Shown piece after piece: positions 4,570-57,359 of a DNA stretch of 64,000 nucleotides. Position 1 is the first letter of the stretch. Every line of letters begins with the position of its first letter. Source of the stretch: an uncultured Candidatus Saccharibacteria bacterium (GTDB taxonomy: Bacteria > Patescibacteriota > CAZHWT01); NCBI GenBank assembly GCA_964536215.1, contig CAZHWT010000001.1, forward strand, positions 15,671 to 79,670, given 5' to 3'. The notes beneath the pieces are model-generated. The model saw only the letters and a list, made by a program, of their open reading frames with translations, was not told the origin of the DNA and ran no database searches. The translations under genes were made by a program, and so were the position numbers.

Positions 4570-5799
4570 GTGCTCAGGTTCTATACTATGCCAAATACCA
4601 ATCACCACCAATTAATAACTCGGGCCATTGATACGATTTTACCTACCCCGGCCGCTTTTGAGCAATTGCTGGATAAAGCGGAAGCCGAAGGTCGCCAACT
4701 GCGCGGGTATTACGGGATTGATCCGACATCACCTCATTTACACATTGGCCATACTGTCGGCATGAATGCTTTAGCGCGCTTTCAACAGGCCGGACATAAG
4801 GCTATTTTGCTGATTGGTGATTTTACCGGTAGATTAGGGGATCCGGACAAGCTATCCATCCGCCAGCCATTAACCAAGGAACAGGTTGAGGCTAACATGG
4901 CTACCTACCTAGAGCAGGTTGGAACTATTTTGGATTTTGACGGCGATAACCCAGTGGAGGTGCGTTACAACTCGGAGTGGAGCGACACCATGCGCTTTGA
5001 GGAGATTGTAAAGCTGGCGGCACACTTTACGGTTCAGCAGATGTTAGAGCGGGATATGTTTCAGCGGCGAATTGAGGAGCAGCGGCCAATTTCACTGTCC
5101 GAATTCTTTTATCCGTTAATGCAAGGGTATGACGCAGTGGCTTTAGAGGCCGACGTACAATTTGGGGGTACTGATCAGATTTTTAATATGCTGGCTGGCC
5201 GGACACTTAATCGTGTTTTGGCCGATCGGGAGATGATGGTAGTAGCCGTACCACTGCTAGCGGATGGTAATGGGGTTAAAATTGGCAAAACCATGGGTAA
5301 CGCTATTAATATTGATAATCCGCCTAATGAACTGTACGGCCAGATGATGAGCTTGCCGGACGAAGTAATTGTGCCGGGCCTGACATTACTAACCGAGGCA
5401 CCTGAAGATGAGATCGCTCAAACAGCTACCAGATTAAAGGCTGGCGATAATCCCATGGCGGCCAAAAAGCGGCTGGCCTGGCTGATTATTGAGAAGTATC
5501 ATGGCCAGTCATCGGCGGATAGCGCTCAGTCTCATTTTGAGCATACTGTTCAGGGCGGATCTGCTCCTGAACAAATTGAGGACCGAGTTTTGGATCGGGC
5601 TGATTGGGATATTGTTGATCTACTGGTAGAGCTTGGACTGACTGATAGCAAAGCCCAAGCCCGGCGGTTGTTTGAGCAGGGTGGCATTGAAGTGGACGAG
5701 CAACGCCTAACCGAGCGGCAAGTGCATATTGATGATAAAATTCTGTTGAAGGTAGGGAAGAGGACTTATCTGAATGTGCACGTGTCTAGGGAAGCGTAA
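4570..5799 (+). CDS. tyrS: Tyrosyl-tRNA synthetase. The ORF begins at GTG 4570; ATG 4588 (MPNTN...) is an alternative start.
   Basis: Class I HIGH motif (PHLHIGHTV). KMSKS-like KIGKTMGN. C-terminal S4 RNA-binding domain. Confidence 0.85.
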   Translation: MLRFYTMPNTNHHQLITRAIDTILPTPAAFEQLLDKAEAEGRQLRGYYGIDPTSPHLHIGHTVGMNALARFQQAGHKAILLIGDFTGRLGDPDKLSIRQPLTKEQVEANMATYLEQVGTILDFDGDNPVEVRYNSEWSDTMRFEEIVKLAAHFTVQQMLERDMFQRRIEEQRPISLSEFFYPLMQGYDAVALEADVQFGGTDQIFNMLAGRTLNRVLADREMMVVAVPLLADGNGVKIGKTMGNAINIDNPPNELYGQMMSLPDEVIVPGLTLLTEAPEDEIAQTATRLKAGDNPMAAKKRLAWLIIEKYHGQSSADSAQSHFEHTVQGGSAPEQIEDRVLDRADWDIVDLLVELGLTDSKAQARRLFEQGGIEVDEQRLTERQVHIDDKILLKVGKRTYLNVHVSREA

Positions 5800-11359: not shown

Positions 11360-11944
11360 ATGCGTATAAGCGGTGGTTTTGCGCGGGGGTTACCCTTACG
11401 CGTGCCAAAAATTTCTGATATTCGTCCGGCCCAGGAGATGGTTCGTCAGGCAGTTTTTTCTATATTAGGAGACCGCGTGAAGGATGCTACCGTGCTTGAT
11501 ATTTATGCTGGGTCTGGCGCCTACGGCCTTGAGGCCTTATCTCGAGGAGCGGCTCATGCCACTTTTGTTGATACCAATGTTGAGTCAATTAAGGCTATTA
11601 AAGCCAATCTGGATGTTGGTCGATTTTGGGGCAAGGCGGAAGTCGTACAGCTCGATGCTTTGCGATACCTATCAGAAGAGGCTGGCCAACTACCGTTCGA
11701 CCTTATTTTTGCGGATCCACCATACGAATACGGTCTCCCATCGGGCCTCCTGTTTCACTTAGCCGAAGTCTTGGCTGATGATGGACTAGTTGTTTTTGAC
11801 CACGTTAAGGGTTTGAATTTTGATAGGGGAGAAGACCTAGAGGTAATTGAGACGCGGACATATGGAGGATCAGGAGTAACATTCTTGAGGAAGAATCCAA
11901 GTATCCAAGGACCCAAGCATCCAAAACAAGGTATACGTACTTAA
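11360..11944 (+). CDS. rsmD: 16S rRNA (guanine966-N2)-methyltransferase RsmD
   Basis: SAM-binding motif (DIYAGSGAYGLEAL) and catalytic FADPPY motif. A TATACT -10 box sits 7 nt upstream of the ATG, so the mRNA is possibly leaderless. Confidence 0.7.
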   Translation: MRISGGFARGLPLRVPKISDIRPAQEMVRQAVFSILGDRVKDATVLDIYAGSGAYGLEALSRGAAHATFVDTNVESIKAIKANLDVGRFWGKAEVVQLDALRYLSEEAGQLPFDLIFADPPYEYGLPSGLLFHLAEVLADDGLVVFDHVKGLNFDRGEDLEVIETRTYGGSGVTFLRKNPSIQGPKHPKQGIRT

Positions 11945-14799: not shown

Positions 14800-15501
14800 T
14801 TAGAATGGGTTGTCTTTACCGGTAATAGTTTGAGCCGAGGTTGGAGCGTATGATGCCAAGTGCAATGAATCAATAGCTGTCAATGTTGCTTCTTTAGCTG
14901 ATGTGCGCTGTGGTAGCGGCTCTTCAGCTGGTCCAAGGTCCTCCGGGAACGGCTGGTAAGGGCTAGAAACGTCAAAGGTGGCTACTAATGTCCCATCCTC
15001 GTCGCTCGACGGCACAATATGTAGACTGGTTAACGACACAACCCGAGCCACTGTTTCTGACTGTCGAATAAAGTTAACGATATTGGCATACCCACCCACA
15101 ACTGATAAGTTTGTCTCTACGGTACTGCCTGATTCAGTGTTTTTTACCACGGTTTTGTCCTGACCATATCGTACGCCTTGCGTGGAGGCTCCAGCACCCA
15201 CAGCTACTTGCTCCAGCGTTCCTAATAGACCAGCTGGATCAGCTTGCGAAGGAATGACTGGTTCAACTTTCTCGGTTAGCGTCGCTTTATTTTGTTCTGC
15301 CTGCAATCCTTGCAAAGCGGCCACTTTCTCCTTTAATGCGTCTAGCTTTGTCTGCTTGTCAGACATAGTTTTAAAGCTATCTTGTATATCCCCAACCCAT
15401 GGCAACGCTAAGAGTGGAATAACGGCAATAAGAATGACAGCCGCCGCAACGGGCATAATATATGGCTTAAAGCTATCAACGGTCATTGTAGGCGTGTTCA
15501 T
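14800..15501 (-). CDS. pilO: Type IV pilus assembly protein PilO-like
   Basis: N-terminal TM, then coiled coil, then periplasmic-type domain. Overlaps the pilN stop by 4 nt. Confidence 0.5.
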   Translation of the reverse strand: MNTPTMTVDSFKPYIMPVAAAVILIAVIPLLALPWVGDIQDSFKTMSDKQTKLDALKEKVAALQGLQAEQNKATLTEKVEPVIPSQADPAGLLGTLEQVAVGAGASTQGVRYGQDKTVVKNTESGSTVETNLSVVGGYANIVNFIRQSETVARVVSLTSLHIVPSSDEDGTLVATFDVSSPYQPFPEDLGPAEEPLPQRTSAKEATLTAIDSLHLASYAPTSAQTITGKDNPF

Positions 15502-16127
15502 GATTGGTCTCCGGTAGGGGTAGGGGTTGGTGTAGGTGTAGCACTGGGCAACGCAGCCAACGATTGAGGAGTCAGGCTGAAGGTTACGGTAAAGGCGATA
15601 GTGGAGGACTGGTCATCGCGGCCAATCATGACTAGGGCTGGTTTGGTGAAGTAGGGACTTTCCTCATTGTCTGAGGTAGCTCCTTGGGTGCGCAATTTAT
15701 CGTAGAAGCCGGCCAAGTCAGCATAGGTTGTAACTGTGCCCGAAATGGTGGCTATATCCGAAGCATCGACAGACATATCAGTTAACTGCATAGACGCAGG
15801 CACCGTTTGGCTAAATTGAGTTAGGAAGGTAGAGTAATGCTTTTGTGTCGCAAAAAAATTACTGAGCGATGTTAATTTGGTATCCAAGGCGCGGTAGACG
15901 CCTTCTGCCTCTTTGTACGTCTGCACTTTTTGTGTCTCGGTGTTTATGGAATTATCTATGCTAGTAAGGCTGGCCTGCAGGGCAAGTTTGCCGGCAAATA
16001 AACCGCCAACGGCCACAATCGTTATAATAAGAACGACGACGCTTACTGTAGTGAGCATCTTTTGTTGGCGAACTTTAGGGGTAACTTCGGCAGTTTGACT
16101 TGGTAAAAGGTTAATATCTTGGGCCAT
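15498..16127 (-). CDS. pilN: Type IV pilus assembly protein PilN-like
   Basis: INLLP motif at the N-terminus. Single TM. Sits downstream of pilM. Confidence 0.6.
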   Translation of the reverse strand: MAQDINLLPSQTAEVTPKVRQQKMLTTVSVVVLIITIVAVGGLFAGKLALQASLTSIDNSINTETQKVQTYKEAEGVYRALDTKLTSLSNFFATQKHYSTFLTQFSQTVPASMQLTDMSVDASDIATISGTVTTYADLAGFYDKLRTQGATSDNEESPYFTKPALVMIGRDDQSSTIAFTVTFSLTPQSLAALPSATPTPTPTPTGDQS

Positions 16128-16254
16128 GGACAGAATGGGTTATGTGTCTATTCTAGAGATATGCTTGTCTGCTTGTCAACTACTTAGATTCTGACTTACA
16201 GACTCTACCAGTAGCCTGGTCGCGACGGTGTGTGAATATGCCTCTCGTTATCGT

Positions 16255-17292
16255 TTAGCCTAACTCTTTCATGGCCAAGCCAACGGCAACTGCATATGAC
16301 GTTTCGTCTTCTTTGACCCGCTGCTGCAGCGATGAGGGAATTTCGACGCTTTGCCAAGGGGAGCCGATTTGTACTTCCAAGCCAATTGTCGTGGCCAAAT
16401 AGACCACCATACCGGGGAGATTAGCGGTACCTCCGACCAACACCACCCGCTTGATGGTATCAGAAGGGTGCCGAGTTTGGTAAAACAAAATAGCTCGTTG
16501 AATTTCTGAGGTGATGATGTCGAAGACTGGCTTGATTGCTTGCATAACCTTACCTTCCAGCTGGTCTTCAACTAGGCCATAATTTTTCTTGTATTCTTCG
16601 GCCTGTCCCATTTCAAAGCCTAAATCTTGAGCAATGGCTCTAGCTAGGGCAGACCCACCAGTGGCAATAGAGCGGGTAAAAGAAGTTACGCCACTGGAAA
16701 CGATGGCTAAGTCCGTCGTCGTAGCCCCCACTGAGATAATTAGCGTGGTCGGACCAGCATCCCGTCCATCTACCAGGGCCCGTTTAATGGCGATTGTTTC
16801 TGTTTCAAAAGAAATCGGGTTCAACTTAGCCTGTTTAAGCAGCCCGACATAGCGCTCAATAAGCGTATTGGGAGCGGCTACCAAATAGACGCTCATTTTG
16901 GCTCCAGGCTCTTTAGCCGTCGGCCGACTTAGCACCTGCCAAGAGAGCTTGACATCTTTTAGTGGGAGAGGGATATATTGCTCTGCTTCCCATTGAATGG
17001 CGTTAGCCAGCTCTTTGTCGCCCATGTTGGGGATTTCAATTACACGAGTAAAGATGGCTGACTCAGGAAAAGCCACAGCCACGTTAGTGCTGGTAATTTT
17101 AGCATCTTTGACCAGATTGCGAACCGCTTCGGACAGCGCGCCTTGATCCAATGGGGCATCTGAGGCGAGGGCATTGGGTGGGGTAGTAGCTTTACCAAAC
17201 GCCTGGAGAATAAATCTTTTATTCTCTCGTCGCAATTGGACCACCTTAATACTATGAGAACCGATATCTAAACCAAAATAATCTGAGGGCAT
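16255..17292 (-). CDS. pilM: Type IV pilus assembly protein PilM (actin-like ATPase)
   Basis: GLDIGSHSIKVV actin-fold N-terminus. 345 aa. Operon with pilN/pilO. Confidence 0.8.
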   Translation of the reverse strand: MPSDYFGLDIGSHSIKVVQLRRENKRFILQAFGKATTPPNALASDAPLDQGALSEAVRNLVKDAKITSTNVAVAFPESAIFTRVIEIPNMGDKELANAIQWEAEQYIPLPLKDVKLSWQVLSRPTAKEPGAKMSVYLVAAPNTLIERYVGLLKQAKLNPISFETETIAIKRALVDGRDAGPTTLIISVGATTTDLAIVSSGVTSFTRSIATGGSALARAIAQDLGFEMGQAEEYKKNYGLVEDQLEGKVMQAIKPVFDIITSEIQRAILFYQTRHPSDTIKRVVLVGGTANLPGMVVYLATTIGLEVQIGSPWQSVEIPSSLQQRVKEDETSYAVAVGLAMKELG

Positions 17293-17475
17293 AGGGCAAG
17301 ACGGCCTACTTGCAGGCAGTACTACTGCTACTATACCCGCACCCCGAGCTGAGTGTCAACCGGAGCTGAAGCACAATCGCCTCGAAGGTTGCCTGTGATT
17401 ATCCATTGCATCTACATGAGATGTAGGCGTAGATATATTTCCCTAAACGTCAGGACAGTATTGTATACTAGGAGC

Positions 17476-18165
17476 ATGCCTGATTCTCGCCCGTCATCAA
17501 AGTCGACCAAGAAGACCAGAAAACCAGCCACCCGACGACGAAAGTCCACCGTTGTATCTAAACCAGCTGCTTCACTCCCACCGCTACTAGCCCCGACGCC
17601 AGCGCCGGAACATACCACTGCTACAGCGCCACCACCGTCAGTAGCACCACCTTTACCTCTGGTACGCACTAGCTACAACGCCAACCGCATTAAGCGACTA
17701 AGCTGGGCTGGCGGACTAGCCATTGTCATGCTTATTGGTGCGGTAGGCTGGCTGTATCGAGATCAACTGCTCGCCTTACTGCCAACTACCGACCACTCGC
17801 CAGCGCCAGCGTATCATCTGCAGGTCGAGCCTGAACGTCTTGATGAGGAGAAGCTGTCGCAAGCATTGCAGCAGGCCGGTATTTCGCCCCCTTCGGCTAG
17901 CACTTCGGCTCAAAGTAGTGACTCAGCTACGCCGGCGTATGTGGCCGAATACGCCAACACGACTGACCAGGAGCTGCACGAACGGCTAGAGGCTGGCATT
18001 GCTGCGCTGGATAATACCGAACCATATGTGGGAGTGTTGGCCGCCTACAAGGCCAAGATTAATCAACTTGAATCAACTAATCCGACCAAAGCGCGACAGG
18101 CGTTAATGGAAGCCGTGCAGTTAAGTAAAGAATTTACTGCTCTATATCTCTATGCCAAAGAGTAG
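17476..18165 (+). CDS. Hypothetical membrane protein with basic/Pro-rich N-terminal region (ORF track 17353..18165; probable start ATG 17476)
   Basis: TATACT, then aggagc, then ATG. Single TM (LSWAGGLAIVMLIGAVGWL). No family recognised. Confidence 0.4.
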   Translation: MPDSRPSSKSTKKTRKPATRRRKSTVVSKPAASLPPLLAPTPAPEHTTATAPPPSVAPPLPLVRTSYNANRIKRLSWAGGLAIVMLIGAVGWLYRDQLLALLPTTDHSPAPAYHLQVEPERLDEEKLSQALQQAGISPPSASTSAQSSDSATPAYVAEYANTTDQELHERLEAGIAALDNTEPYVGVLAAYKAKINQLESTNPTKARQALMEAVQLSKEFTALYLYAKE

Positions 18166-18237
18166 AGCGCTACCCCTAGATCACTTTTATCAATAGACCT
18201 CAGGTCTCACTACAGCTAGAGCGATACTGTGTTAGAT

Positions 18238-20187: not shown

Positions 20188-20197
20188 TCTTGTCAGA

Positions 20198-21169
20198 CTA
20201 CTTAGTCAGTGGGTTAGTGGAGCCGTTAAACAAGGCGTAATCAAAAATGGCTGGCAGAGTAGCATTGGAGCGAACAACTTTGACGGTCCGCTGGTTTTCT
20301 CCAGCTACGGCTGTCGAGGTAATCTCTTGACCCTGCGGAGGGAGAACGTGGCCGCCAACTGGCTGAATGGCAATTTGCTCGGTATCATCGCCGTACATAA
20401 GGCGAATACGGGCCAGCTTTAGGTTGACGCCAGTTGGTAAGTTGATGGTCTTCTTAAACTTATAGTTACCCCGATGGCTACCATCCTGAGTAACCAAATA
20501 AGTGCCGTGTGGATACACGGGTGGGTTATCTATGCCACTGTTGTCGAATCCATTTTGACGGCCAGCATTGGTACATTTATCATAAGCCTGTTTATCCATA
20601 CCATATTTGCCGCTTGAATCGGTATAAATAATACTCACAACAATGGCCGCGGTATGTTGCCCGCTATTGTCGCATGCCCCACCACTATCAAGAGTATCCC
20701 AGAAAATATCTAGTTTATTGCCAGCGTACTTGACTGTATTGCCGTCTGCATCTTGGCTTTCTAGGCTAACTTGAATGACGTCATCGCGCTTAACATCTTG
20801 GAGGCCAAAGGCGTCTGTGGTGCCACCAATAATTTTAGCCGTAACTTTGACAGAATCTACACCGTCAATTTGCAATTTATTGTTATCACTATCAACAAAA
20901 CAACCTTCTGTAGTTTGGCAGGCGGCTGGATCTACATTTAGCTTGCCTAGAGCCACCTCAATGCCCGCCTCAGCAGCGCTAAAAGCCCGGTTGGATTGGT
21001 TAAGGTGGGTAGTATCACGGAGGTTGGAGAGTGTGCGCGAAGCAACAGACAGGCCAATACTCATTCCCACCAGAACAACCAGTAATACGAGAACCAAGAT
21101 CTGTCCGGAGGAAGATGACTGACGTGACATAGTAGTATGATTATGCATGCCTGCTAAAGGCATTGTCAA
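20198..21169 (-). CDS. PilX-like minor pilin (N-terminal hydrophobic helix without Glu5)
   Basis: SSGQILVLVLLVVLVGMSIGLSVASRTL N-terminus typical of PilX_N. 323 aa. Confidence 0.45.
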   Translation of the reverse strand: MTMPLAGMHNHTTMSRQSSSSGQILVLVLLVVLVGMSIGLSVASRTLSNLRDTTHLNQSNRAFSAAEAGIEVALGKLNVDPAACQTTEGCFVDSDNNKLQIDGVDSVKVTAKIIGGTTDAFGLQDVKRDDVIQVSLESQDADGNTVKYAGNKLDIFWDTLDSGGACDNSGQHTAAIVVSIIYTDSSGKYGMDKQAYDKCTNAGRQNGFDNSGIDNPPVYPHGTYLVTQDGSHRGNYKFKKTINLPTGVNLKLARIRLMYGDDTEQIAIQPVGGHVLPPQGQEITSTAVAGENQRTVKVVRSNATLPAIFDYALFNGSTNPLTK

Positions 21170-21181
21170 ACGTGGAGCAGA

Positions 21182-21793
21182 TTACCTGGTGTAGCTGCGC
21201 AATGAAATGCTGGTAATAAACGGTACTTTAATCCGCTTAGCTCGCTGCTGTGCGTCCGCACTCCAGCCGTCAAAGAGATTGAGAGAGACGGTCACATGGT
21301 CGGGTGAAACCTTGGACTCGACAACGTCGAACATGGGCGTGCCAGAAATGGCCTCAACGCTAATACTGCCAGGCCCGTCCGAGGTAAACAGTTCATGCTT
21401 ATCGCCGCAGGAAGTACCGTCATTTCGATACGACTGAACCCAAAGTTTGCCGTTACCGCCATCGGGCTTATTGTAATAATAGTCAACGAGCTGACACCCA
21501 CCATTAGAGTTATATTCAATCGAATCGGTCGGAATAGTTAAATGCAGACAAGCATCGTTAGCTTCCTTACAATTAGTATTTTCGACCACAATAGCGCTGC
21601 GAACACTGCGCTCCAGCCGCTCAAACACAGCCGACCCTTCGGATTGTAGTCTATTAATAGTGTTGGCCTTTACCACCGCTCCGTTAATAATGGCGTAAAG
21701 AGAGATGCCAATTCCAGACATAATACCCAATAGGGCCACGGAGACAAGGATTTCGATGAGGGTAAAGCCAGAGGTTGAGTGTTTTTTATTCAT
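21182..21793 (-). CDS. Type IV pilin-like protein (prepilin motif G|FTLIEILV). Start at ATG 21793 (MNKKHSTSG...).
   Basis: Class III signal peptide with Glu at +5. The ORF-track N-terminal extension is rejected because it overlaps the upstream gene. Confidence 0.6.
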   Translation of the reverse strand: MNKKHSTSGFTLIEILVSVALLGIMSGIGISLYAIINGAVVKANTINRLQSEGSAVFERLERSVRSAIVVENTNCKEANDACLHLTIPTDSIEYNSNGGCQLVDYYYNKPDGGNGKLWVQSYRNDGTSCGDKHELFTSDGPGSISVEAISGTPMFDVVESKVSPDHVTVSLNLFDGWSADAQQRAKRIKVPFITSISLRSYTR

Positions 21794-21794
21794 G

Positions 21795-22352
21795 TTATTG
21801 CCAATCAGAGAGTATAGTTTGGTTGATGAGTCGTCGCGGAGCAGCACTTGTGCCATAGCAAATCACGGCTGAAGCCTCAACTTTGGTGCCATCCGCTAGT
21901 CGGTGCATGACAATTTCGCGGTAAAAATTTGACGAATCTGGGATTTTGTAAGCGCTACTGCTACGAATTTGGCTGCAGCGGTCTTTTCCAGCATCTGAGG
22001 CTGACAGGTTGCCTTTATATTCTAGCGTTGGGTCGCCAGAAGCGTCATTTAAGACATAATGCCGATATGTATCTACCTGCAGCACGGTCGGCGACGCATT
22101 AGACGACTCCAGCAACTTATTCCAGGTATTCTTGTCGCGAATTACTCGCAATGTTTCGATAGCCTGGCGAGAGTATTGGTCGGCAATAGCCTGATTGCGC
22201 GACTCATTAACCGCGTTGAGTGAGGCATTTGTGACTACAACTAATGCCACAATAGCAATACTCACAATAGCAATGGCTAAGACAACCTCTAGCAAGGATA
22301 ATCCTTGCTGGCTAGAAGTACGTGACGTGGACGTTAAGTGTAATTGCTTCAT
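21795..22352 (-). CDS. Type IV minor pilin-like protein (QQG|LSLLEVVLAIAIV)
   Basis: Prepilin-type N-terminal cleavage/methylation motif with Glu5. Confidence 0.55.
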   Translation of the reverse strand: MKQLHLTSTSRTSSQQGLSLLEVVLAIAIVSIAIVALVVVTNASLNAVNESRNQAIADQYSRQAIETLRVIRDKNTWNKLLESSNASPTVLQVDTYRHYVLNDASGDPTLEYKGNLSASDAGKDRCSQIRSSSAYKIPDSSNFYREIVMHRLADGTKVEASAVICYGTSAAPRRLINQTILSDWQ

Positions 22353-22355
22353 ATA

Positions 22356-23102
22356 CTAACAGGCCTGGACTCTCAGGGTGGTTCGAGATATATATAAGCA
22401 TTGGTAAATAGTGGTCCAAAAAGCCTTTGATTGAAATTTTAAAATGGTATGTCCAGCACTTGGAAGATTGGTCCGACCCGTTACTGTATCGTACGTAATA
22501 CCTTCTTCTGCTACTTTAAAGCCAGTGTATGAGCTGTCTTCACCATCTGCCTTCATAATTTTAATTGAGGAGTTAAAATCTCTAGTAATAATTGGATCTG
22601 GAGTAGGATTGGTTTTGCAGGCCGTAACGCCATCAGCGGCGGTGGCGCGCCACTCGGGAACAACCTGGTAGCCAGTATACGCATAGGGGTCGCCAGTGCT
22701 AATGAGGCTAAAGGCGTAGTCATTGATATAGGTAGTGTCACCGTCACAGTCACTGGATAATTCATCTGGGTTTTTACTGGCATCAGCTTGGTCTTGATAG
22801 TTTGAGAGGGCTCTAGCTCTGGCTGTTTTTATGTCGCTAGCCATTTGATTGGCAGCATTGGACAATTGCTGGTGTTGATAGATGCCAAAGAGACTAGGAA
22901 TAGCTATGGCAGCTACGATGCCCATAATGGCAATAGCCACCAATAACTCAAGCAGCGTAAACCCAGCCGGGGGCGAAGTCGAGCAACGATCTGGCTTGCT
23001 TGAACGATGAAGCTTGGCGATTGCTACGATCGACGCAGTTTGCTTCTGATGCTTTTGTATCCGTATCCTGACATTCAATTGATGGGCAGTTAGAATTTTC
23101 AT
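22356..23102 (-). CDS. Type IV pilin-like protein with unusually long basic leader (MKILTAHQLNVRIRIQKHQKQ...PPAG|FTLLELLVAIAIMGI)
   Basis: Canonical G|FTLLEL motif ~46 aa after the first in-frame ATG. ATG 23102 overlaps the pilD stop. The ORF-track extension to 23477 is spurious. Confidence 0.5.
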   Translation of the reverse strand: MKILTAHQLNVRIRIQKHQKQTASIVAIAKLHRSSKPDRCSTSPPAGFTLLELLVAIAIMGIVAAIAIPSLFGIYQHQQLSNAANQMASDIKTARARALSNYQDQADASKNPDELSSDCDGDTTYINDYAFSLISTGDPYAYTGYQVVPEWRATAADGVTACKTNPTPDPIITRDFNSSIKIMKADGEDSSYTGFKVAEEGITYDTVTGRTNLPSAGHTILKFQSKAFWTTIYQCLYISRTTLRVQAC

Positions 23103-23971
23103 AGCAATAGCTGTTGATACCAGGTTGCAATTATGGGCGTTAACCAGAGCGAAAGCAGTGTGCCGACGACCAAAAAGGGGCCAAAGGGGATTGTCTGGCC
23201 GAATGTTTTTTGCTTGGCTGCTAACAGAAGCAATGATAGCACGGCGCCCAAAATAAAGGCAAGATAAATAGCTACAATAATAGCCGGATATCCCAGAAAG
23301 AGGCCCATTAAAAGTGCTAACTTGACATCTCCCAGCCCCATGCCTGGTTTGTGGAGGATTTTTTCCGACCCCCAGACGATGATTAGGAAGAATAGCGCGG
23401 CGGATAGTCCGCTGACCAAAGTAGGCGAGTAGGTGAGTAGGTGAGTAGGTGAGTCCAGGCTGGCTAAGGGTTGCCATGTAAGGGGTTGTTGTAAGATTGC
23501 GGCTAGTATCGCCATGACTAAAGTTAAAGCTGCACCACCTAGGGTCCAGATATCAGGCAAATAGCCCCAGCGAAGGTCGTAGACGAACAGAGCGATGAGT
23601 AACGCAGTCATAACCCAAACGAATACTAGTGTGGCGATTTGCCAAGCGTCTAGCGTGTAGCGTGTAGCGTCTAGTCCATACATATACACAAAGCTAGTCA
23701 CAAAACTAAAGGCAGTTGTTAGCTCGATAGCTATATATTGAGGTGAGATTTTTTTATGACAATACCGGCAGCGGCCGCCTAAGAGAAGGTAGGAAATAAC
23801 CGGAATAAGGTCGAGAGGAGAGAGGGTATGCTGACAATGAGGGCAGACAGAGTGTTTCTCTAGCATGGAGCGGTCATTATAGACTCGCCAAATCCAAGCA
23901 GTTAAGAAACTACCAATCATAGCTCCAAGAATAGCAACAAAAATTATGGTAGCGATGAGGATAAGAAGCAT
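23099..23971 (-). CDS. pilD: Prepilin peptidase (A24 family) PilD, with in-frame tandem-repeat insertions
   Basis: N-terminal CxxC...CxxC zinc-binding domain (CPHCQH...CRYCHKK). Eight TM helices. Repeats GTAGGTGA x4 (23421-23460) and TAGCGTG x3 (23641-23670) are read in frame. Confidence 0.8.
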   Translation of the reverse strand: MLLILIATIIFVAILGAMIGSFLTAWIWRVYNDRSMLEKHSVCPHCQHTLSPLDLIPVISYLLLGGRCRYCHKKISPQYIAIELTTAFSFVTSFVYMYGLDATRYTLDAWQIATLVFVWVMTALLIALFVYDLRWGYLPDIWTLGGAALTLVMAILAAILQQPLTWQPLASLDSPTHLLTYSPTLVSGLSAALFFLIIVWGSEKILHKPGMGLGDVKLALLMGLFLGYPAIIVAIYLAFILGAVLSLLLLAAKQKTFGQTIPFGPFLVVGTLLSLWLTPIIATWYQQLLL

Positions 23972-24170
23972 ATAGTGCTCAGAGTACTGCGATTAATGTT
24001 TTTGCTACTTTACAGAGATAAAAACTGATACGTACGTACACGTATATGTACCTACAATTTTCTATTTTCTATTTTCTATTTTCTATTTTCTATAAATAGC
24101 CTACCAGGCAGGCACTAAAAAAGAAAGCGCCCGAAGGCGCCTTCTTTAAGGTAAAGGACTGCTAAGTCTT

Positions 24171-24683
24171 TTACTTAGGAAGATGGAAAGTTGTACCTTC
24201 CGTAGGAGCATCAGCCGCAGCTGGAGCTGCCCCACACTTGTACCAAGTTTGCCCTAAGCTGGTGTAATACGCAATGTACACATCGCCAGAACATTTAGTC
24301 GAGAACGCGGCTTTAGCGCTCTGAGAGGCCAAGGTGCCGTAGTAGATCAAGTCAGCGCCAGACGAAACTACGATTGGGGTGATGGTCGATCCAGGAGCTT
24401 GCTTGAGGAACCCTCCACCAACGAGACCTGACGTTGAGTCACCAATAGATTGGCAAGATGTTGCATACGTTGTACCACCACCTGTTGAGGTGTAACAAGT
24501 TTCAACAGCAGTTGCTACCTGACCAAGATCACTCTTTACCTTAGAATCGTTGGCCTCGTTTATACGCTCGGCTGGGTTAATGGCGACCAAAACAACAGCG
24601 GCCAAAATACCGATAATGGCGATAACGACCAATAATTCGATAAGGGTGAAACCTTTTTGAATTGATTTATACATGGGTTTCAC
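24171..24683 (-). CDS. pilA: Type IV major pilin PilA
   Basis: MKPMYKSIQKG|FTLIELLVVIAIIGILAAV classic prepilin N-terminus. 170 aa. Confidence 0.8.
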   Translation of the reverse strand: MKPMYKSIQKGFTLIELLVVIAIIGILAAVVLVAINPAERINEANDSKVKSDLGQVATAVETCYTSTGGGTTYATSCQSIGDSTSGLVGGGFLKQAPGSTITPIVVSSGADLIYYGTLASQSAKAAFSTKCSGDVYIAYYTSLGQTWYKCGAAPAAADAPTEGTTFHLPK

Positions 24684-24858
24684 CTCCCTTCACAAAAGCA
24701 AAGATGTATCCGGATGGACATCTTTGCTGGTGTTTTAGATAAGTAAGAGAGAAAAATGCAGGGCAGGGCATAGGTGGTTAGTGGTGGGTAGCGTGTGGTG
24801 AGTAGGTAATAATAGTATTATCTTTTACTATACTGCACCCAATGGAATCGGGCAAGCA

Positions 24859-26064
24859 TTATCCAATACTTCCCAGTACGCCATAGATAGGCAAGAGTAA
24901 GGCGAAGATTAAGAAACCGACACAAACACCCAGCACAATCATAATAATTGGCTCTAGGGCGGTTGATAAGTTTTTCACAGTGTTATTCGTTTCCTCTTCA
25001 AAGGTGTGGCCAACTTTAAGCAAGACCTCGTCCAGCTTACCCGTCTTTTCGCCAATCGAGGTCATTTGGTTAACTAGTCGGGGGAAGATAGGCTGGCGTT
25101 CAAAGGCCGTCGCTAGTGCCGCCCCTTTTTCGACCGATTGAGCAATGCTGGCGGCAGCCTCCTGGAAACGAATATTGGTTAACGTCTCTTTAGAAATATC
25201 CAGAGCATCAAGAATTGGCACACCAGAGCTAATTAGAAGCGCCAGCGTGTCAATAAATTGCGTTAGCTGGACTAAGTGATTTAATTTGCCAAAAATCGGC
25301 ACTTTAGCAAATGTGTCAGAAATGACATACTTACCCTTAAGCGTAGAGGCAAACCAGCGATAGGCCGCAATTACTCCTACAATAAGTAGAATCATAATGT
25401 ACCACTGGCTGGTAAATAGATTTGAAATGCCAACTAAAATGAGGGTGCTTAGGGGTAGATCAACATCCAAACTCTCATAAACCTGCTTCATTTGCGGAAT
25501 AACAAAGACCATCATAACGGCCATAACACCGGCCATGGCAATCAAAATGATAATTGGGTAAATTAGGGCACCTTTAACCTTGGCTCTGAATTCGGCCTGG
25601 CTTTCTAAGGAATCAGCCAGCTTAACTAAAATTTTATCTAGATTACCCGATGCTTCACCGGCCTTAATTAAGCTGATATACAAACGAGGGAAGATTTGCG
25701 GATACTTTTCCAGCGAGCGAGAGAATGACAAGCCACCATCAATATCCCGAACTATTTCTTCAAGGGTTTTTTTGAAAAAGCCAGGCTTTAGCTGAGCGGC
25801 TAACACTTCCAAAGCCTGGGTTAGAGGTAAGCCGGCATTTACCATTGTGGCCAACTGTCGTGTTGTGGTTGACAGCACCTTACCGGACACCTTATTAGCG
25901 CCCAGCATGCCCATTATGTCTGTTTGGCGCTTGAGCTCCAGAGAAGTAATTAACAGTTTGCGATTCCGCAGAATATCGGCAGCTTGGTGCTCATCGGCAG
26001 CCTCGATAAGACCCGATGAAGCGGCGCCGGTTTCACTGAGTGCGGTATAACGATATGTAAGCAT
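24859..26064 (-). CDS. pilC: Type IV pilus platform protein PilC (GspF family)
   Basis: Two T2SSF repeats. Three TM segments. 401 aa. Confidence 0.85.
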   Translation of the reverse strand: MLTYRYTALSETGAASSGLIEAADEHQAADILRNRKLLITSLELKRQTDIMGMLGANKVSGKVLSTTTRQLATMVNAGLPLTQALEVLAAQLKPGFFKKTLEEIVRDIDGGLSFSRSLEKYPQIFPRLYISLIKAGEASGNLDKILVKLADSLESQAEFRAKVKGALIYPIIILIAMAGVMAVMMVFVIPQMKQVYESLDVDLPLSTLILVGISNLFTSQWYIMILLIVGVIAAYRWFASTLKGKYVISDTFAKVPIFGKLNHLVQLTQFIDTLALLISSGVPILDALDISKETLTNIRFQEAAASIAQSVEKGAALATAFERQPIFPRLVNQMTSIGEKTGKLDEVLLKVGHTFEEETNNTVKNLSTALEPIIMIVLGVCVGFLIFALLLPIYGVLGSIG

Positions 26065-26082: not shown

Positions 26083-27186
26083 TTATGCAGTTGGCGTCTG
26101 AGGCTGAGCAGGTTGATTGCGTAGAATGCGATCCAGCTCGCCAGCTCGCAGAGTGTGCTGCTTAGCTTCTTCTAATGATATTTTGCCGGCTTGAATAAGT
26201 GTGGCCAGTGATCGCTCAAGGCTTACCATGCCCTGGTCGCCACCAGTCATCATTAAGTTATCGATTTGATGAGTCTTGCCTTCGCGAATAACTGATCGAA
26301 TACCAGAGTTGATGGCCAAAATTTCTGTCGCCGCTACCCGCCCACCACCTAATGCTGGGATGAGCCGCTGAGAGACAATACCCTCTAACGAGCCGGCTAA
26401 CTGCGCTCGGACTTGGGCTTGCTGATGCTCTGGGAAAACATCGATAACACGGTCGACGGTCTGAGCGGCTGAGTTGGTGTGAAGTGTGGCAAATACTAAG
26501 TGGCCAGTTTCAGCAATGGTTAGCGCCGCAGAAATTGTTTCATAGTCACGCATTTCGCCAACCAGTACTACGTCAGGATCTTCACGCAAAACAGAGCGTA
26601 GGGCAATGTCCCACGAATGCGTATCTAGATGAAGCTCGCGCTGAGTAATGAGTGAGCGGCGATGCGGGTAAACATACTCGATTGGATCTTCAACGGTAAT
26701 AATGTGGGCGGCGCGCGTTTCGTTTATCTGATTAATCATGGCAGCCAACGTGGTCGACTTACCGTGCCCGGTCGGGCCCGTCACTAGCACAAACCCCTGG
26801 GGAAGAGTAGTGAGGCGCTGCACCGCTTGGGGTAAGCCTAACTCCTCTAAGGTACGGATAGTGGTAGGAATGAGTCGCAGGGCGGCTCCCAAATAGCCTT
26901 TTTGATGGTAAATATTGACGCGGAAACGAGCCACTTCACCAAGAGCAAAAGAGAAGTCAACCTCTTTGTTGGAGATGAGAATATCTTTTTGTTCGTCACT
27001 GGTGAGAGAAAACGATAGGTCTTCCAAATCTTTGGCCGTTAACGGATTTAGCCCCTCGATAGCCACCAACGATCCATCAATTCTGACCATTGGGAGAGCG
27101 CCAACCGTTAAGTGCAGGTCGGATGCCTTACGGCGAATTACCTCTTCGAGCAACTGTTGAATTGTGGGAGTAGCTGTGGTCGGCAT
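26083..27186 (-). CDS. pilT: Twitching motility ATPase PilT
   Basis: Walker A GPTGHGKSTTLAAMI. No N-terminal GSPII_E_N extension. 367 aa. Confidence 0.8.
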   Translation of the reverse strand: MPTTATPTIQQLLEEVIRRKASDLHLTVGALPMVRIDGSLVAIEGLNPLTAKDLEDLSFSLTSDEQKDILISNKEVDFSFALGEVARFRVNIYHQKGYLGAALRLIPTTIRTLEELGLPQAVQRLTTLPQGFVLVTGPTGHGKSTTLAAMINQINETRAAHIITVEDPIEYVYPHRRSLITQRELHLDTHSWDIALRSVLREDPDVVLVGEMRDYETISAALTIAETGHLVFATLHTNSAAQTVDRVIDVFPEHQQAQVRAQLAGSLEGIVSQRLIPALGGGRVAATEILAINSGIRSVIREGKTHQIDNLMMTGGDQGMVSLERSLATLIQAGKISLEEAKQHTLRAGELDRILRNQPAQPQTPTA

Positions 27187-27404: not shown

Positions 27405-29123
27405 CTAAGCGATGACTCGGAGCACTTCTTCAAAGGTTGTCAGCCCCTCTAGTACCTTAAGCATACCGTCTTGTTTCATCGTAATCATGCCAGCCGCAAC
27501 GGCTTCGGCCTGAATTTTGTCAGCTGACTCGTGTTGCAATATTAAGCGGCCAATCTTGTCGGTTACTTCCAGCACTTCATAAATACCCGCTCGGCCTTGA
27601 TACCCCAGGTTATTACATTCGGAACACCCTTTTGGCATATACACTACTGGCTGCTTAGAGGCGGCCTCTTTTGGCATAAGCGGGCCAAGAATCTCTTTTA
27701 TCTGCTGCTCAATCTCAGGGGTGATGGGGGTGGGGACACGGCACTTAGGGCAGAGCTGACGAACTAGTCGCTGGGCCATAATGACATTTACCGATGAGGC
27801 TACCAAGAACGGTTCGGCACCCATATCTAGCAAGCGAGGCAGAGAGCCAGCAGCTGAGTTGGTGTGCAGAGTAGAGAGGACCAAGTGACCGGTTAAGGAG
27901 GCTTGGATAGCCAATTCCATAGTTTCACCGTCACGAATCTCACCAACCATTATAACGTTAGGGTCTTGTCGCAAGATAGAACGCAATCCTGAAGCGAAGG
28001 TGAGGCCAGCGGCGGGGTTGATTTGAACCTGATTAACACCGGCTACTTCATATTCGACTGGATCTTCGAGGGTGATTATATTGACCTTGACCGAGTTAAG
28101 CTTGGTAAGAGATGTTCGTAGCGTGGTCGTTTTACCAGACCCAGTTGGTCCGGTTACCAAAATAATACCAGCCGTTTTAGCTAGAGCGGTTTCGAACGTT
28201 TTTAGGGCATTACCTCTAATGCCGAGTTCTGCAAAGGTTGGCACACTGGCATCTTTACGCAATAGTCGCATAACCACCTTTTCGCCCTTAGCGGTGGGCA
28301 AAGTCGAGACACGCAGGTCAATTTGTTGCTCGCCGACCTGAATTTGAAAACGACCATCTTGCGGGACGCGCTTTTCATCAATTTTCATATTGGACAAAAT
28401 CTTAATGCGAGAGACAACCGAGTCGTGGACTTTATTGGGAAGCACCAATCGTTCCTGCAACACACCGTCAATACGATAGCGGACCCGAGTGTTTTCTACG
28501 CCAGGTTCAATGTGCACGTCAGAGGCGCGCGATTTGGCAGCGTATTCGAGCATAGTCGAGACAATGCGGGCCACTGGAGCGTCGCGGATAGCTTCGTCAA
28601 TTTTGCTAATGTCTTTAATTGATTCCTCAATCTTGGTCGTCTCCGTCTGAGCCTCGCGCAAAGCGGCACGGACGTCTTTATCGATTGACTGGGCATAGCT
28701 GGTTTCGATAGCGGCCTGAATTTCTTCCGCCGGGGCCACAAATGGCTTGACTCGCATACCACTCTTGGTTTCGAGGAATTCAATAACCTGCAAATCCAAT
28801 GGATCCGACATGGCTACCTGGATTTGGCCGTTATCAATACCAAAAGGCATGAGCACGTAGTGCTTGGCTACTGCTTCGGGGATTTTTGACAAGACTTCTA
28901 CACTAATAGCCTGTCCTTTTAGAGTAACGTAGGGAATATTGAGGATCTTGGCTTGTGCGCCAAGGATATCTTTTTCGCTAGCCCAGCCTTTGGATAAGAG
29001 AATTTCTCTTACCTGCTTACCAGTGTTAATCTGCTCAACCTTAACTTGAGAGACCTGGTCAGCGGTCAAGACCCCTTGGGCAGCGAGAATATCTTCAATG
29101 GTGTTGGCAGCAACTTCGGGCAT
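27405..29123 (-). CDS. pilB: Type IV pilus assembly ATPase PilB (GspE family)
   Basis: N-terminal GSPII_E_N domain. Walker A GPTGSGKTTTL. Tetracysteine motif CPKC...CSEC. 572 aa. Confidence 0.85.
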   Translation of the reverse strand: MPEVAANTIEDILAAQGVLTADQVSQVKVEQINTGKQVREILLSKGWASEKDILGAQAKILNIPYVTLKGQAISVEVLSKIPEAVAKHYVLMPFGIDNGQIQVAMSDPLDLQVIEFLETKSGMRVKPFVAPAEEIQAAIETSYAQSIDKDVRAALREAQTETTKIEESIKDISKIDEAIRDAPVARIVSTMLEYAAKSRASDVHIEPGVENTRVRYRIDGVLQERLVLPNKVHDSVVSRIKILSNMKIDEKRVPQDGRFQIQVGEQQIDLRVSTLPTAKGEKVVMRLLRKDASVPTFAELGIRGNALKTFETALAKTAGIILVTGPTGSGKTTTLRTSLTKLNSVKVNIITLEDPVEYEVAGVNQVQINPAAGLTFASGLRSILRQDPNVIMVGEIRDGETMELAIQASLTGHLVLSTLHTNSAAGSLPRLLDMGAEPFLVASSVNVIMAQRLVRQLCPKCRVPTPITPEIEQQIKEILGPLMPKEAASKQPVVYMPKGCSECNNLGYQGRAGIYEVLEVTDKIGRLILQHESADKIQAEAVAAGMITMKQDGMLKVLEGLTTFEEVLRVIA

Positions 29124-29242
29124 AAGGCTAGTGTCTGGAATCTAGAAAATAGAAAATAGAATCTTCTAACTTCGCGGATTGACTTGTTTCATTATTCGTT
29201 CTTTGTACGTTATTTAAGGATATAATAGGATTATTCGGAGGA

Positions 29243-32368: not shown

Positions 32369-32384
32369 TACGAATGATGATTGG

Positions 32385-55083: not shown

Positions 55084-56112
55084 CTAACGTGGTTGTCCCA
55101 GCCGGTTAAGGACGTCTACACCGACTACCAATTCAACATCAGCCCTTTCTCGGCCGGTTTTGGCGGCTACGGTTAAGGGGACGCCCAGCAAATTAGTAAG
55201 TCCGGCGGTTAGCCGGGTACTTTTTTCGGCAGTCATAGTGGTGTTAGCCTGTCCGGAGTCGGCTGGCTCTACAGCGACCACTTCCCCACCTAGATGGTGA
55301 GCGTATCTGGCAGTTAAAGCGGCAAGCCCCGGTACATCGGTAGCGTTCTTAACCACAATGCTCACCCCTTGGTTGACTGCCTGCTGGTCAACGAGTGTTC
55401 GTTCGACGAGCGGATCGAGTTGGTCAGTTTGACCTACCGTCATCCCCTTGTCGGTGCGACTAAAGGCCGCAGCGTCGATAGACTGAATGGTGATGCGACT
55501 ATCGTCGGCATCTCGGACTAGCCATACCGTTTGAATAAATTGCCAAGGTGACAGATTGGTACGAACCTCTGGCTGGTTTAAGAGCCACCACGGGGCCGAA
55601 GCGGTTGTCTGCCACCAGCTAGGCTTGGGCTGGCGGAGGAACAAGGCCGACCAGCTCTGTGCTTCTGGCAATACTGCCCCCGATGGTTGAATAATATACC
55701 CATTTATAGGTAGAGCTAGCGTTTGCTCGACTAATTGCTGCAGTTCTTTATAGTAGCCATTTTGCAAATAGTCGGCTGCTGTAGTCTGACCGTCTGATAG
55801 GTCGGTTGGCAATTGCAGAATTGAGAAGCCACGGTCTTCGGTCCAGACCCTCATAATGGCTAGCGATTGGAGCTGAGCGGCGTCGGAAGCAGATTGCTGG
55901 GCAATCAGGTAGACTGGGTTATCCATTGTGGAAGTAATGAAAGAATGAGGAGTGCTAGTAGGATAGGTCTTGACCGCATGACTAACCGCCAGAGCAGCGG
56001 TCACCCCCCACCAGCCGAACAAGCCAATACAGGCTATGCCAACGAGGCGGAATAGCCAGACTTTTAGACTCGACCTAGAGCGACTATGCCGCTTAGTGTG
56101 ACGGCGCTTCAT
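55084..56112 (-). CDS. Hypothetical membrane-anchored extracytoplasmic protein (possibly LytR/LCP-like)
   Basis: Basic N-terminus. Single TM (LFRLVGIACIGLFGWWGV). 342 aa. Family assignment is weak. Confidence 0.35.
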   Translation of the reverse strand: MKRRHTKRHSRSRSSLKVWLFRLVGIACIGLFGWWGVTAALAVSHAVKTYPTSTPHSFITSTMDNPVYLIAQQSASDAAQLQSLAIMRVWTEDRGFSILQLPTDLSDGQTTAADYLQNGYYKELQQLVEQTLALPINGYIIQPSGAVLPEAQSWSALFLRQPKPSWWQTTASAPWWLLNQPEVRTNLSPWQFIQTVWLVRDADDSRITIQSIDAAAFSRTDKGMTVGQTDQLDPLVERTLVDQQAVNQGVSIVVKNATDVPGLAALTARYAHHLGGEVVAVEPADSGQANTTMTAEKSTRLTAGLTNLLGVPLTVAAKTGRERADVELVVGVDVLNRLGQPR

Positions 56113-57359
56113 GGTACATACTCCTGTTTTAAGGCTTGAAAAGCAGCTGGACCATCTTCTAACGCGGTTCGAACTTTTTGCATGAGACCAAGCATGGTAT
56201 AGACATTATGGTACGAGGCTAAGCGAGCGCCGAGGATTTCACCAGCCCGGCAGAGGTGGTTAAGGTAGGCACGGGTATACGTAGTGCAGACCCAGCAGCG
56301 ACAGGTCGGATCCGGTGGTGAAAAATCCTGGCGATATTTGCCATTGGTAATAATTAAACGATAGGGGTTGGCTGAGCCTTCAGCTTTGGCTGTTTGCGGA
56401 TGAACGATAAGGGTGCCGTTGCGAGCCCAGCGGGTGGGAGTAACACAGTCGAACGTGTCTATACCCCGCTCTACGCCCATAAAAATGTCATCTATATCCC
56501 CTACTCCCAGCAAATGGCGTGGCTTGGCTGGATTGAGATGAGGCGTGCTCCATTCAACGGCTTGGCGCATTTGGTCCTTGCTCTCCCCCACCGAGACGCC
56601 GCCGACGCAATACCCGTCAAAATCGAGCGTATCAATATATTTGGCAGATTGTTGGCGTAAATCCTGATAAACGCCGCCCTGAGTAATGCCGAATAGATGT
56701 TGATGCGATTGGCCGTGCTGCTGATGATAGTCTAGGCCCCGCTTGGCCCAGGCGTGAGTACGCTGCATAGCCTCCTGAGTGTATTCATGGGTGGCTGGAT
56801 GTGGGGCACATTCATCAAAGGACAGAATAATGTCAGCGCCGATTTTGTGCTGAGTGGCTAAGGAGATTTCGGGAGTAAAACGATGAATAGAGCCGTCCAA
56901 GTGAGAGTGGAAGGTGACGCCGTCATCGTCAATGCGGGCCAGGAGGGGTGAGTTTCGAGTTTCGAGTTTCGAGTTTCGAGTTTGGGATTGGAGGGCGAGG
57001 GACGAGTCTCTTGCTGCCTTGCTGCCTTGCTGTCTTGCTGCTTTACCTAATCCAAGACTAAAAACCTGAAAACCACCGGAATCCGTAAATAAGGCGCCGG
57101 GCCAGGATTGAAATTGATGCAGCCCGCCAGCCGCGGCGATAGTGTCGGCACCCGGACGCATGTATAGGTGATAGGTGTTGCCGAGAATGAGGCGGGCACC
57201 CATATCCCATAATTCTTGCTGGGACAAGGTTTTAACCGTAGCTTGAGTGCCGACTGGAAAAAAGGCTGGCGTTTCAATGGAGCCATGGCTGGTGTTAATG
57301 CGACCACGACGAGCAGCGGTACCCGGCAGCGTTTGCAGTTGTTCAAAAAACGGCGTCAT
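56109..57359 (-). CDS. tgt: Queuine tRNA-ribosyltransferase (tRNA-guanine transglycosylase) carrying an in-frame microsatellite insertion
   Basis: Tgt motifs (LILGNTYHLYMRPG; zinc site CRCWVC...H). 416 aa. Extra ~40 aa (KAARQQGSKAARDSS...TRNSKLETRNSKLETRNSPL) are encoded by the repeats at 56950-57041. Confidence 0.85.
   Translation of the reverse strand: MTPFFEQLQTLPGTAARRGRINTSHGSIETPAFFPVGTQATVKTLSQQELWDMGARLILGNTYHLYMRPGADTIAAAGGLHQFQSWPGALFTDSGGFQVFSLGLGKAARQQGSKAARDSSLALQSQTRNSKLETRNSPLLARIDDDGVTFHSHLDGSIHRFTPEISLATQHKIGADIILSFDECAPHPATHEYTQEAMQRTHAWAKRGLDYHQQHGQSHQHLFGITQGGVYQDLRQQSAKYIDTLDFDGYCVGGVSVGESKDQMRQAVEWSTPHLNPAKPRHLLGVGDIDDIFMGVERGIDTFDCVTPTRWARNGTLIVHPQTAKAEGSANPYRLIITNGKYRQDFSPPDPTCRCWVCTTYTRAYLNHLCRAGEILGARLASYHNVYTMLGLMQKVRTALEDGPAAFQALKQEYVP
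56950..57041. repeat. Intragenic microsatellites inside tgt: (GAGTTTC)x5 at 56950-56984 and (CTTGCTGC)x4 at 57010-57041
   Basis: Perfect or near-perfect tandem heptamer and octamer copies, translated in frame as KLETRNS repeats and AARQ/GSKAAR. Confidence 0.8.

Follow-up and report, generated by a model that had tools for sequence, protein, structure and literature searches.

Seven- and eight-nucleotide tandem arrays encode two loops of the prepilin peptidase PilD in a Candidatus Saccharibacteria genome

We have analyzed a stretch of 64,000 nucleotides (nt) from the genome of an uncultured Candidatus Saccharibacteria bacterium (contig CAZHWT010000001.1, positions 15,671 to 79,670; hereafter called the window), with particular attention to pilD, the gene for a predicted prepilin peptidase. 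Two tandem arrays, one with a 7-nt and one with an 8-nt unit, lie inside pilD and encode the whole of one loop and part of another between transmembrane (TM) helices, and the reading frame is unbroken through both. We consider it probable that the arrays are microsatellites made by slipped-strand events and then filtered by the reading frame and by what the protein can tolerate. The gene and its two arrays are as follows.

23099..23971, minus strand: pilD, prepilin peptidase / N-methyltransferase, 290 amino acids (aa), assigned from Pfam, alignment, AlphaFold model and gene context.
23420-23454, minus strand: 8-nt array of 4.4 copies, Tandem Repeats Finder (TRF) score 63, 96% matches, at the end of the TM4-TM5 loop.
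23645-23674, minus strand: 7-nt array of 4.3 copies, TRF score 46, 91% matches, making up the entire TM2-TM3 loop.

On the forward strand the array at 23420-23454 consists of GTAGGCGA, three copies of GTAGGTGA and a terminal GT. Its coding strand reads as three copies of CTCACCTA followed by CTCGCCTA and CT, and is translated into the peptide DSPTHLLTYSPT at aa 173-184. The array at 23645-23674 has the forward sequence AGCGTCT AGCGTGT AGCGTGT AGCGTCT AG and the coding sequence CTAGACG CTACACG CTACACG CTAGACG CT, giving LDATRYTLDA at aa 100-109. With at least three head-to-tail copies of a unit between 5 and 11 nt, both qualify as simple sequence repeats (SSRs).

A preliminary description of this DNA had placed the arrays at 23421-23460 and, in three copies, at 23641-23670; they are present, but their limits and copy numbers were slightly off. 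That they are read within the pilD frame on the minus strand, between TM helices, is borne out by the Pfam matches, the translation and the structural model. A proposed family relationship to intergenic sequences at 24775-24812 and 40395-40440 was rejected, as the matches are at the level of chance. Outside the arrays, 13-mers comprising a double unit give 1 and 2 matches with up to two mismatches, against about 1.1 expected, and a degenerate 8-mer gives 38 matches, a figure that includes the arrays themselves, against 26.7 ± 5.2 expected.

Because neither unit is a multiple of three, successive copies are read in all three frames, and the period of the peptide is therefore the unit length counted in residues, 7 or 8. 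In the alignment a single frame accommodates the A24_N domain, the helix carrying D132 and the GxGD motif, and hence each array is individually frame-neutral.

The identity of the protein is well defined. Pfam matches to A24_N_bact (7e-29, 100.1 bits, cut-off 23) and Peptidase_A24 (3e-11, 44.3 bits, cut-off 26.5) are accompanied by residues C43, C46, C68, C71, D132 and G212-x-G214-D215, all invariant in an alignment of 26 sequences (the window protein and 25 homologues). An AlphaFold2 (AF2) model built on the alignment has a mean predicted local distance difference test (pLDDT) score of 91.7, with helices at 77-100, 109-135, 140-159 and 177-204. In this model the 7-nt array corresponds to the whole of loop 101-108 (TM2-TM3), and the 8-nt array to the end of loop 160-176 (TM4-TM5) and the opening turns of the helix that follows. 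No solved structure matching PilD by sequence was found, and the model has no experimental structure of a close homologue to set beside it. The alignment shows that neither array region is conserved among A24 homologues, whose loops vary in length and sequence, and the description of these residues as repeat-derived therefore stands.

In the A24 family the cysteine motif and both catalytic aspartates lie on the cytoplasmic side. Taken together with the helices of the model, this means that both loops should face outward, and we predict them to be extracytoplasmic.

The genetic context agrees with the assignment. A complete type IV pilus cluster surrounds the gene, with pilB (27405..29123), pilT (26083..27186), pilC (24859..26064), pilM, pilN and pilO (14800..17292) and a major pilin gene (24171..24683), and there are several pilin-like genes downstream of pilD; proteins with an N_methyl domain are encoded nearby at 21182..21856, 21795..22352, 22356..23102 and 24171..24683. 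From its domain pair, four cysteines, two aspartates and pilus context, the product of 23099..23971 is PilD, a predicted enzyme of the A24 family. It shares all these features with the PilD/PulO proteins of that family and differs from them in that its TM2/TM3 and TM4/TM5 loops are encoded by microsatellites.

The arrays in pilD are part of a larger excess. Chance expectation was taken from 30 dinucleotide-preserving shuffles of the 64-kb window, searched with TRF. The window holds 49 arrays of all kinds, compared with 6.4 ± 2.8 in the shuffles; for period-7/8 arrays the numbers are 31 and 1.7, and for arrays with a score of at least 40 they are 21 and 0.63, two of the 21 falling within the single 873-nt pilD gene. 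The comparison shows that the genome is rich in heptamer and octamer microsatellites. It had been suggested that a genome-wide process seeds short repeats into coding DNA. The excess of 7- and 8-nt repeats, and the arrays in tgt described below, support such a process, but not that it is aimed at coding DNA, since the majority of the arrays are intergenic even though long open reading frames (ORFs) cover all but about 15% of the window. The other strong intragenic arrays, and an intergenic array next to pilD, are these.

56109..57359, minus strand: tgt, queuine tRNA-ribosyltransferase, 416 aa, Pfam TGT 2e-131, with a repeat-built insertion.
56940..57050, minus strand: the 37-residue Tgt insertion, aa 104-140, with (GAGTTTC)x4.9 at 56950-56983 and (CTTGCTGC)x4.0 at 57010-57041.
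11891..11924, plus strand: 8-nt array of 4.2 copies (AAGAATCC) in the C-terminal tail of an RsmD-like methyltransferase (11360..11944).
15513..15541, minus strand: 6-nt array of 4.8 copies encoding (PT)n in the C-terminal tail of PilN (15498..16127).
24057..24093, no strand assigned: perfect (ATTTTCT)x5.3 array, intergenic between the major pilin gene and pilD, TRF score 74.

In pilD, tgt, the rsmD-like gene and pilN alike, the strong arrays lie outside the conserved core of the protein. Residues 104-140 of Tgt, comprising the two arrays and the spacer between them, are represented by only 2 residues in the TGT of Zymomonas mobilis. Matches in the PDB (about 1e-100) are split at query residues 103/141, and among the other solved TGT chains listed, the Thermotoga and eukaryotic enzymes included, none matches the insertion. 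The array of the RsmD-like protein begins just past the end of its Pfam domain, and has an inverted partner at 11998-12042.

The number of copies inside genes is restricted. Five intragenic period-7/8 arrays of the window have at least three copies (those beginning at 11891, 23420, 23645, 56950 and 57010), and all contain 4.0-4.9 copies, as expected for one original unit to which three have been added; intergenic arrays range from 2.3 to 6.7. When the window is combined with 83 other Patescibacteria loci (our comparison set, numbered with the prefix L), none of 21 high-quality intragenic arrays reaches five copies, compared with four of 11 intergenic arrays (Fisher p=0.009). Intragenic copy numbers in the other loci include 3.4-3.9 as well as 4.0-4.9, decay of the end units being the probable cause. 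A simple rule of 3n+1 copies, using the integer part of the TRF count, is clean in the window and blurred in the other loci. We have therefore not adopted it, and it is the lack of intragenic arrays with five or more copies that has statistical support.

How old are the arrays? A PilD protein 100% identical to that of the window is present on 14 public contigs. We retrieved four of these, and their DNA is 100% identical to the window wherever they cover it, the longest stretch being 13099-24086. Contigs identical to the window come from the sequencing runs SRR11843816-SRR11843838. All four are short-read contigs that end inside the (ATTTTCT) array at 24057-24093, at position 24086; evidently such arrays fragment k-mer assemblies of this organism. 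The next-best proteins among 5.8 billion are only 65% identical, and identity falls to 52% in the nearest species representative; no homologue between 65% and 100% identity was found in any source of the protein search. Four loci with PilD proteins 52-65% identical to ours (L085, L086, L087 and L001) retain the same gene order. In each of these loci, 11-21 kb long, there is at most one period-7/8 array, and pilD itself is free of them. As these closest relatives lack them, the arrays of the window are young and specific to its lineage, and on these comparisons we take the pilD arrays to be recent acquisitions.

Similar arrays nevertheless occur in the pilD genes of other Patescibacteria. In the 83 loci, pilD holds 32 of the 70 intragenic period-7/8 arrays of at least 2.8 copies in 4.6% of the DNA. 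The densities, for which loop 1 (about aa 91-127 of the window PilD) and loop 2 (about aa 149-191) were delimited after the data had been seen, are in arrays per 10 kb:

Whole genes: pilD 4.5, pilC 0.13, pilM 0.
PilD loop 1: all arrays 20.7, high-quality arrays 7.3.
PilD loop 2: all 7.7, high-quality 5.1.
Rest of pilD: all 1.8, high-quality 0.2.
ORFs in general: all 0.66, high-quality 0.21.
Intergenic DNA: all 6.0, high-quality 1.36.

The density in pilD is thus 35-fold that in pilC (Fisher 1e-9). Since the same two loops carry heptamer arrays so widely, pilD is a recurrent rather than an incidental host.

pilD genes with heptamer arrays: L002, L008, L010, L012, L021, L023, L026, L042, L043 and L053 (mostly near 10001-10800 of the locus), L212-L214 and L216.

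Several of these arrays are perfect. L043, a Daviesbacterium, has (AATTTTC)4.6 and L053, a Parcubacterium, (AATTTTC)4.4; L012 carries (TTACGAT)4.9 in its loop 2, and L042 has (AATATCA)4.7. The AATTTTC unit, encoding the peptide IFNFQFS, recurs in loop 1 of PilD proteins that are mutually only 34-55% identical. We asked if this unit might be specific to pilD. In a metagenome sample of sites with four exact units, only 3 of 126 lie in pilD (L124, L131 and L140), so that AATTTTC is a general SSR; from a rough estimate of the share of the genome taken up by the gene, pilD is over-represented among its sites. A homologue search seeded with the L053 protein returned at least 30 distinct clusters with IFNFQFS-type loop peptides, 30 with GIWYLVSGI-type and 28 with YEILNT-like peptides, counts that are inflated because candidates enter the search through words that they have in common with the query. 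At the peptide level, a search with a strict threshold found no periodicity in the first 121 PilD homologues. Four units give only about three repeated residues, and detection at the level of DNA is therefore needed.

A subfamily of Parcubacteria PilD proteins is particularly informative. Near-perfect (GGTATCT)3.9-5.1 arrays are present in L053, L212, L213 and L216 although the proteins are only about 60-77% identical. The neighboring array is homogeneous within each gene and differs between genes, being ATACCAA x4.7 in L216 and ATACGAA/TACGAAC in L212 and L053.

We can now set out how the arrays of the window may have come about. A slipped-strand or template-switch process would make 7- and 8-nt arrays across the whole genome; heptamers are reported to be the commonest long-unit SSR of bacteria, and polymerase slippage has been proposed for them (Mrazek et al., 2007, as cited in PMC4692102 and PMC4679880). 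Arrays would form everywhere and be purged from coding DNA by selection except under two conditions. The first is that the bases gained must add up to a multiple of three, and with units of 7 or 8 nt this would take three extra copies, hence about four in all; the second is that the new peptide must land in a segment that the protein can spare. The TM2/TM3 and TM4/TM5 loops of PilD would be such segments, each array becoming 7-8 extra loop residues while the enzyme stays intact. Three units might be gained in one event, or a frameshift by a single unit might be rescued by further slippage, which should be easier once a tract exists. In their tolerant positions and their number of about four copies, the coding arrays look like survivors of this filter. 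Slippage as the generator, the route by three units and the near-neutrality of the new loop peptides are what we infer, no copy-number variant having been observed.

A number of observations weigh against this explanation. There is no copy-number variation in the four retrieved contigs of this strain, and there are no loop-length variants inside nine clusters of PilD proteins at 90% identity; the members of multi-member clusters differ only in start-codon calls, truncations at contig ends or C-termini. Loop 2 has 19 residues in the window protein and 14-21 in its relatives, yet subtraction of three units would leave 11, shorter than in any close relative. Reconstruction of the loops before expansion from relatives of 52-65% identity is ambiguous, the loops being too variable. 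Two further results come from the wider group. Loop 1, its limits set once the data were known, contains 17 arrays where 4.9 would be expected at the intergenic rate (p=2e-5), and because the density in this loop tops that of intergenic DNA, the excess is not predicted by tolerance alone. In the Parcubacteria subfamily, residues identical between genes have the same third codon base in 86% of cases within arrays compared with 52% elsewhere (65/76 against 295/568, Fisher 7e-9), the pairs of genes being non-independent. To judge from the sequences, this conservation of synonymous sites indicates ongoing homogenization by concerted evolution, or selection at the level of DNA, rather than passive decay of a relic.

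Of the alternatives to a filtered microsatellite, we regard two as equally unlikely. In the first, the arrays would be contingency loci, where gain or loss of one unit shifts the frame of pilD and reversibly stops all pilin maturation, attachment, twitching and DNA uptake; cells could for example escape pilus-specific phages in this way. The unit is indeed not divisible by three and lies within an ORF, and many Patescibacteria have arrays in these two loops that are live and near-perfect. The homogeneity of these arrays while the unit shifts between lineages, together with the synonymous conservation, is typical of tracts kept mutable by slippage, and the density in loop 1 points the same way. 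On the other hand the tracts of the window are short at 4.3-4.4 units, when long tracts would be expected, and nothing was found of an ON/OFF switch: none of 82 full-length orthologues is interrupted, the strain contigs are identical and the nine clusters lack length variants. Two genes that appeared to be split or truncated, in L208 (1157-2043) and L215 (330-1129), were considered as OFF alleles, but the apparent breaks are runs of N in the scaffolds; that of L208 falls at loop 1 and that of L215 close to the 5′ end of pilD. Moreover, there are like arrays in tgt and rsmD, which are implausible contingency genes, and the closest relatives of the window have none. Records with such gaps as those in L208 and L215 could easily be mistaken for frameshifted alleles.

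This alternative may be extended to the Patescibacteria as a whole, whose PilD loops would be actively slipping, concertedly evolving heptamers, serving as a master switch by ±1 unit and as a diversifier of the loops by ±3. That too is a doubtful proposition. Were it correct, there would be heritable and reversible control of every type IV pilus function of these episymbionts, and pilD of the window would be a newly born example.

In the second alternative, selection would favor either rapid change of surface loops, by in-frame steps of ±3 units, or the repeat peptides themselves, e.g., IFNFQFS, GIWYLVS and YEILNTI. In its favor are the predicted extracytoplasmic location of both loops in a cell without an outer membrane, the sharing of IFNFQFS-type and GIWYLVSGI-type peptides by at least 30 distinct PilD clusters, the array density of loop 1 above the intergenic rate, and a parallel with Borgs, whose tandem repeats are also found preferentially in proteins of the membrane or outside the cell (PMC9879509). 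The peptides, however, differ wholly by lineage (LDATRYT and SPTHLLTY here; IFNFQFS, AISNIKYQ, VTIYDLRF and QHTIYNI elsewhere), there is no in-frame length polymorphism in the species-level clusters, and the count of shared peptides is inflated as noted. Conservation of synonymous sites also argues for a cause at the level of DNA rather than of the peptide. We therefore think this explanation a poor candidate, no better than the contingency locus.

Less probable still is a DNA or RNA signal embedded in pilD, such as a binding site, a pause site or a regulator of the downstream minor-pilin genes, with the peptide as a by-product. Such a signal could account for the synonymous conservation of the arrays in the relatives, and similar intergenic arrays do flank pilus genes, at 24057-24093 upstream of pilD and as the reverse complement at 29138-29168 upstream of pilB; inverted pairs of arrays also occur near gene ends (11891/11998 and 60418/60496). 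But the two arrays of the window have no unit in common with each other or with those of the relatives, the closest relatives are free of arrays, there is no Rfam match in the window, and similar arrays occur in the unrelated tgt and rsmD. Finally, chance low complexity or an artefact of assembly, suggested by the short-read contigs that break at one perfect intergenic array (24086) and by N gaps in the pilD genes of relatives on public scaffolds (one of them at loop 1), is very improbable given 21 arrays of score at least 40 against 0.63 in shuffled DNA, the recovery from separate sequencing runs of identical arrays of 35 and 30 nt, both shorter than a read, and a reading frame that is intact through both.

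The closest known kind of sequence to the filtered microsatellites proposed here is the long-unit SSR, exemplified by the short tandemly repeated repetitive (STRR) sequences of cyanobacteria, GGGAATC in Xanthomonas, GGGGA(C/T)T in Nostoc and TAACTGA in Beggiatoaceae. These have in common with the window head-to-tail units of 7 (or 8) nt at many loci per genome, in excess and with a bias towards intergenic DNA, some copies at the margins of coding sequences, occasional inverted pairs, and a patchy distribution in related genomes (PMC4692102, PMC4679880). They differ in that the window has dozens of unrelated units with none dominant, in a Patescibacterium host, that several of its arrays lie deep in conserved genes (pilD, tgt) and are read in three frames, and that distant lineages of one family, PilD, have been struck time and again in the same pair of loops.

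Contingency loci of Haemophilus, Neisseria and Moraxella, built of tetra- to heptanucleotide SSRs, resemble pilD as non-triplet SSRs in a gene controlling a surface structure and, in the relatives of PilD, in their homogeneous tracts. Here, in contrast, there are only about four units and no ON/OFF or copy-number variation in the data examined, and housekeeping genes are also hit. The amino acid tandem repeats (aaTRs) of Borgs (PMC9879509) are likewise recent, genome-specific repeats that add new and probably flexible segments, with a preference for extracellular or membrane proteins and independent origins in homologues. Their intragenic units are always divisible by three, unlike the 7 and 8 nt found here, which do not fit that description; in pilD it is the count of units alone that keeps the frame, and the peptide repeats with a period in residues as long as the unit is in nucleotides. 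In a limited search of the literature we found neither PilD loops encoded by microsatellites nor heptamer SSRs of Patescibacteria described, which is no proof of novelty.

Some features next to pilD deserve comment. The ORF 22356..23477 had been described as carrying a spurious extension generated by the repeats.

22356..23102, minus strand: pilin-like gene, 248 aa, whose ATGA start overlaps the pilD stop; Pfam N_methyl 1.3e-08 at aa 46-68.
23103..23477, minus strand: spurious N-terminal extension of ORF 22356..23477, overlapping pilD in another frame; not a gene.

The spurious ORF does exist, its first 125 codons overlapping pilD, but it was not created by the repeats, which account for just 35 of the 375 bases of the extension; it is an open frame of the ordinary overlapping kind. 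On public contigs, independent gene calling puts the start of the gene downstream of pilD at the equivalent of 23102. Should translation indeed begin at the ATG at 23102, the pilin-like product has an unusually long segment of about 45 residues ahead of its G/FTLLE cleavage-methylation motif.

A dispersed intergenic motif, CTTTACAGAGATA...TGTACGTACACGT, has two long copies, one between pilD and the major pilin gene (24008-24056) and the other at 44200-44248. Its core, a (TGTACGTACACG)n near-palindrome, has six copies and is found also at 30022-30057, 37214-37249 and 54861-54889, and 30022-30055 is a perfect palindrome with arms of 17 nt. The motif may serve as an operator or promoter, or it may form a cruciform.

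Families of arrays occur at distant loci, often as reverse complements. The (ATTTTCT) array at 24057-24093 has its reverse-complement partner at 29138-29168, upstream of pilB, and GCTAATC x5 at 29922-29975 and GATTAGC x6.7 at 54671-54724 are 85-90% complementary over 41-54 nt. A GTTTATA/ACCATAA family is found at four loci and AACGATA at two.

Further intergenic heptamer family sites: 7964-8003, 32381-32489, 45575-45614 and 47531-47569; 8035-8053 and 44988-45008.

This recurrence suggests that whole arrays have spread or share an origin, and that local slippage is not the only cause.

There are in addition inverted pairs within single regions. The pair 11891-11935 / 11998-12042 straddles the stop codon of the rsmD-like gene, with 76% complementarity and a separation of 62 nt; a second, 60418-60448 / 60496-60526, lies within the spacer 60404-60556, and a third, 4437-4473 / 5919-5955, flanks the entire gene 4570..5799. 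These could form long hairpins or be products of template switching. In the comparison set, paired heptamer arrays occupy the spacer between two pilus ATPase genes in L012 (6123-6200), L044 (2424 and 2871) and L028 (5665-5740), with reverse-complement units TGTAACC / AGTTACA in L012 and AATTTGA / TTCAAAT in L044. Finally, an AT-rich stretch of 1.35 kb at 46585-47930 has no ORF longer than 62 aa and contains six tandem arrays (GC content 0.42 in the bin 46001-48000); no Rfam families or tRNAs were found anywhere in the window, this stretch included.

At a practical level, arrays of this kind break short-read assemblies and make misleading long ORFs. Their biological interest lies in the gene that carries them. 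PilD matures every pilin. Type IV pili are described as the main tool of Patescibacteria for attachment to the host, movement and DNA uptake in one account of these organisms (PMC12206443). If the arrays have the origin we favor, non-triplet microsatellites can build new loops in conserved proteins, always in steps of three units, and this would provide a concrete and datable mechanism for the growth of loops in reduced genomes. That the same pair of PilD loops is struck again and again, and that in one subfamily the arrays stay uniform even at synonymous sites, raises the question of whether pilD is unusually tolerant of inserts, or whether the tracts may act as a mutational switch of piliation for these ultra-small symbionts.

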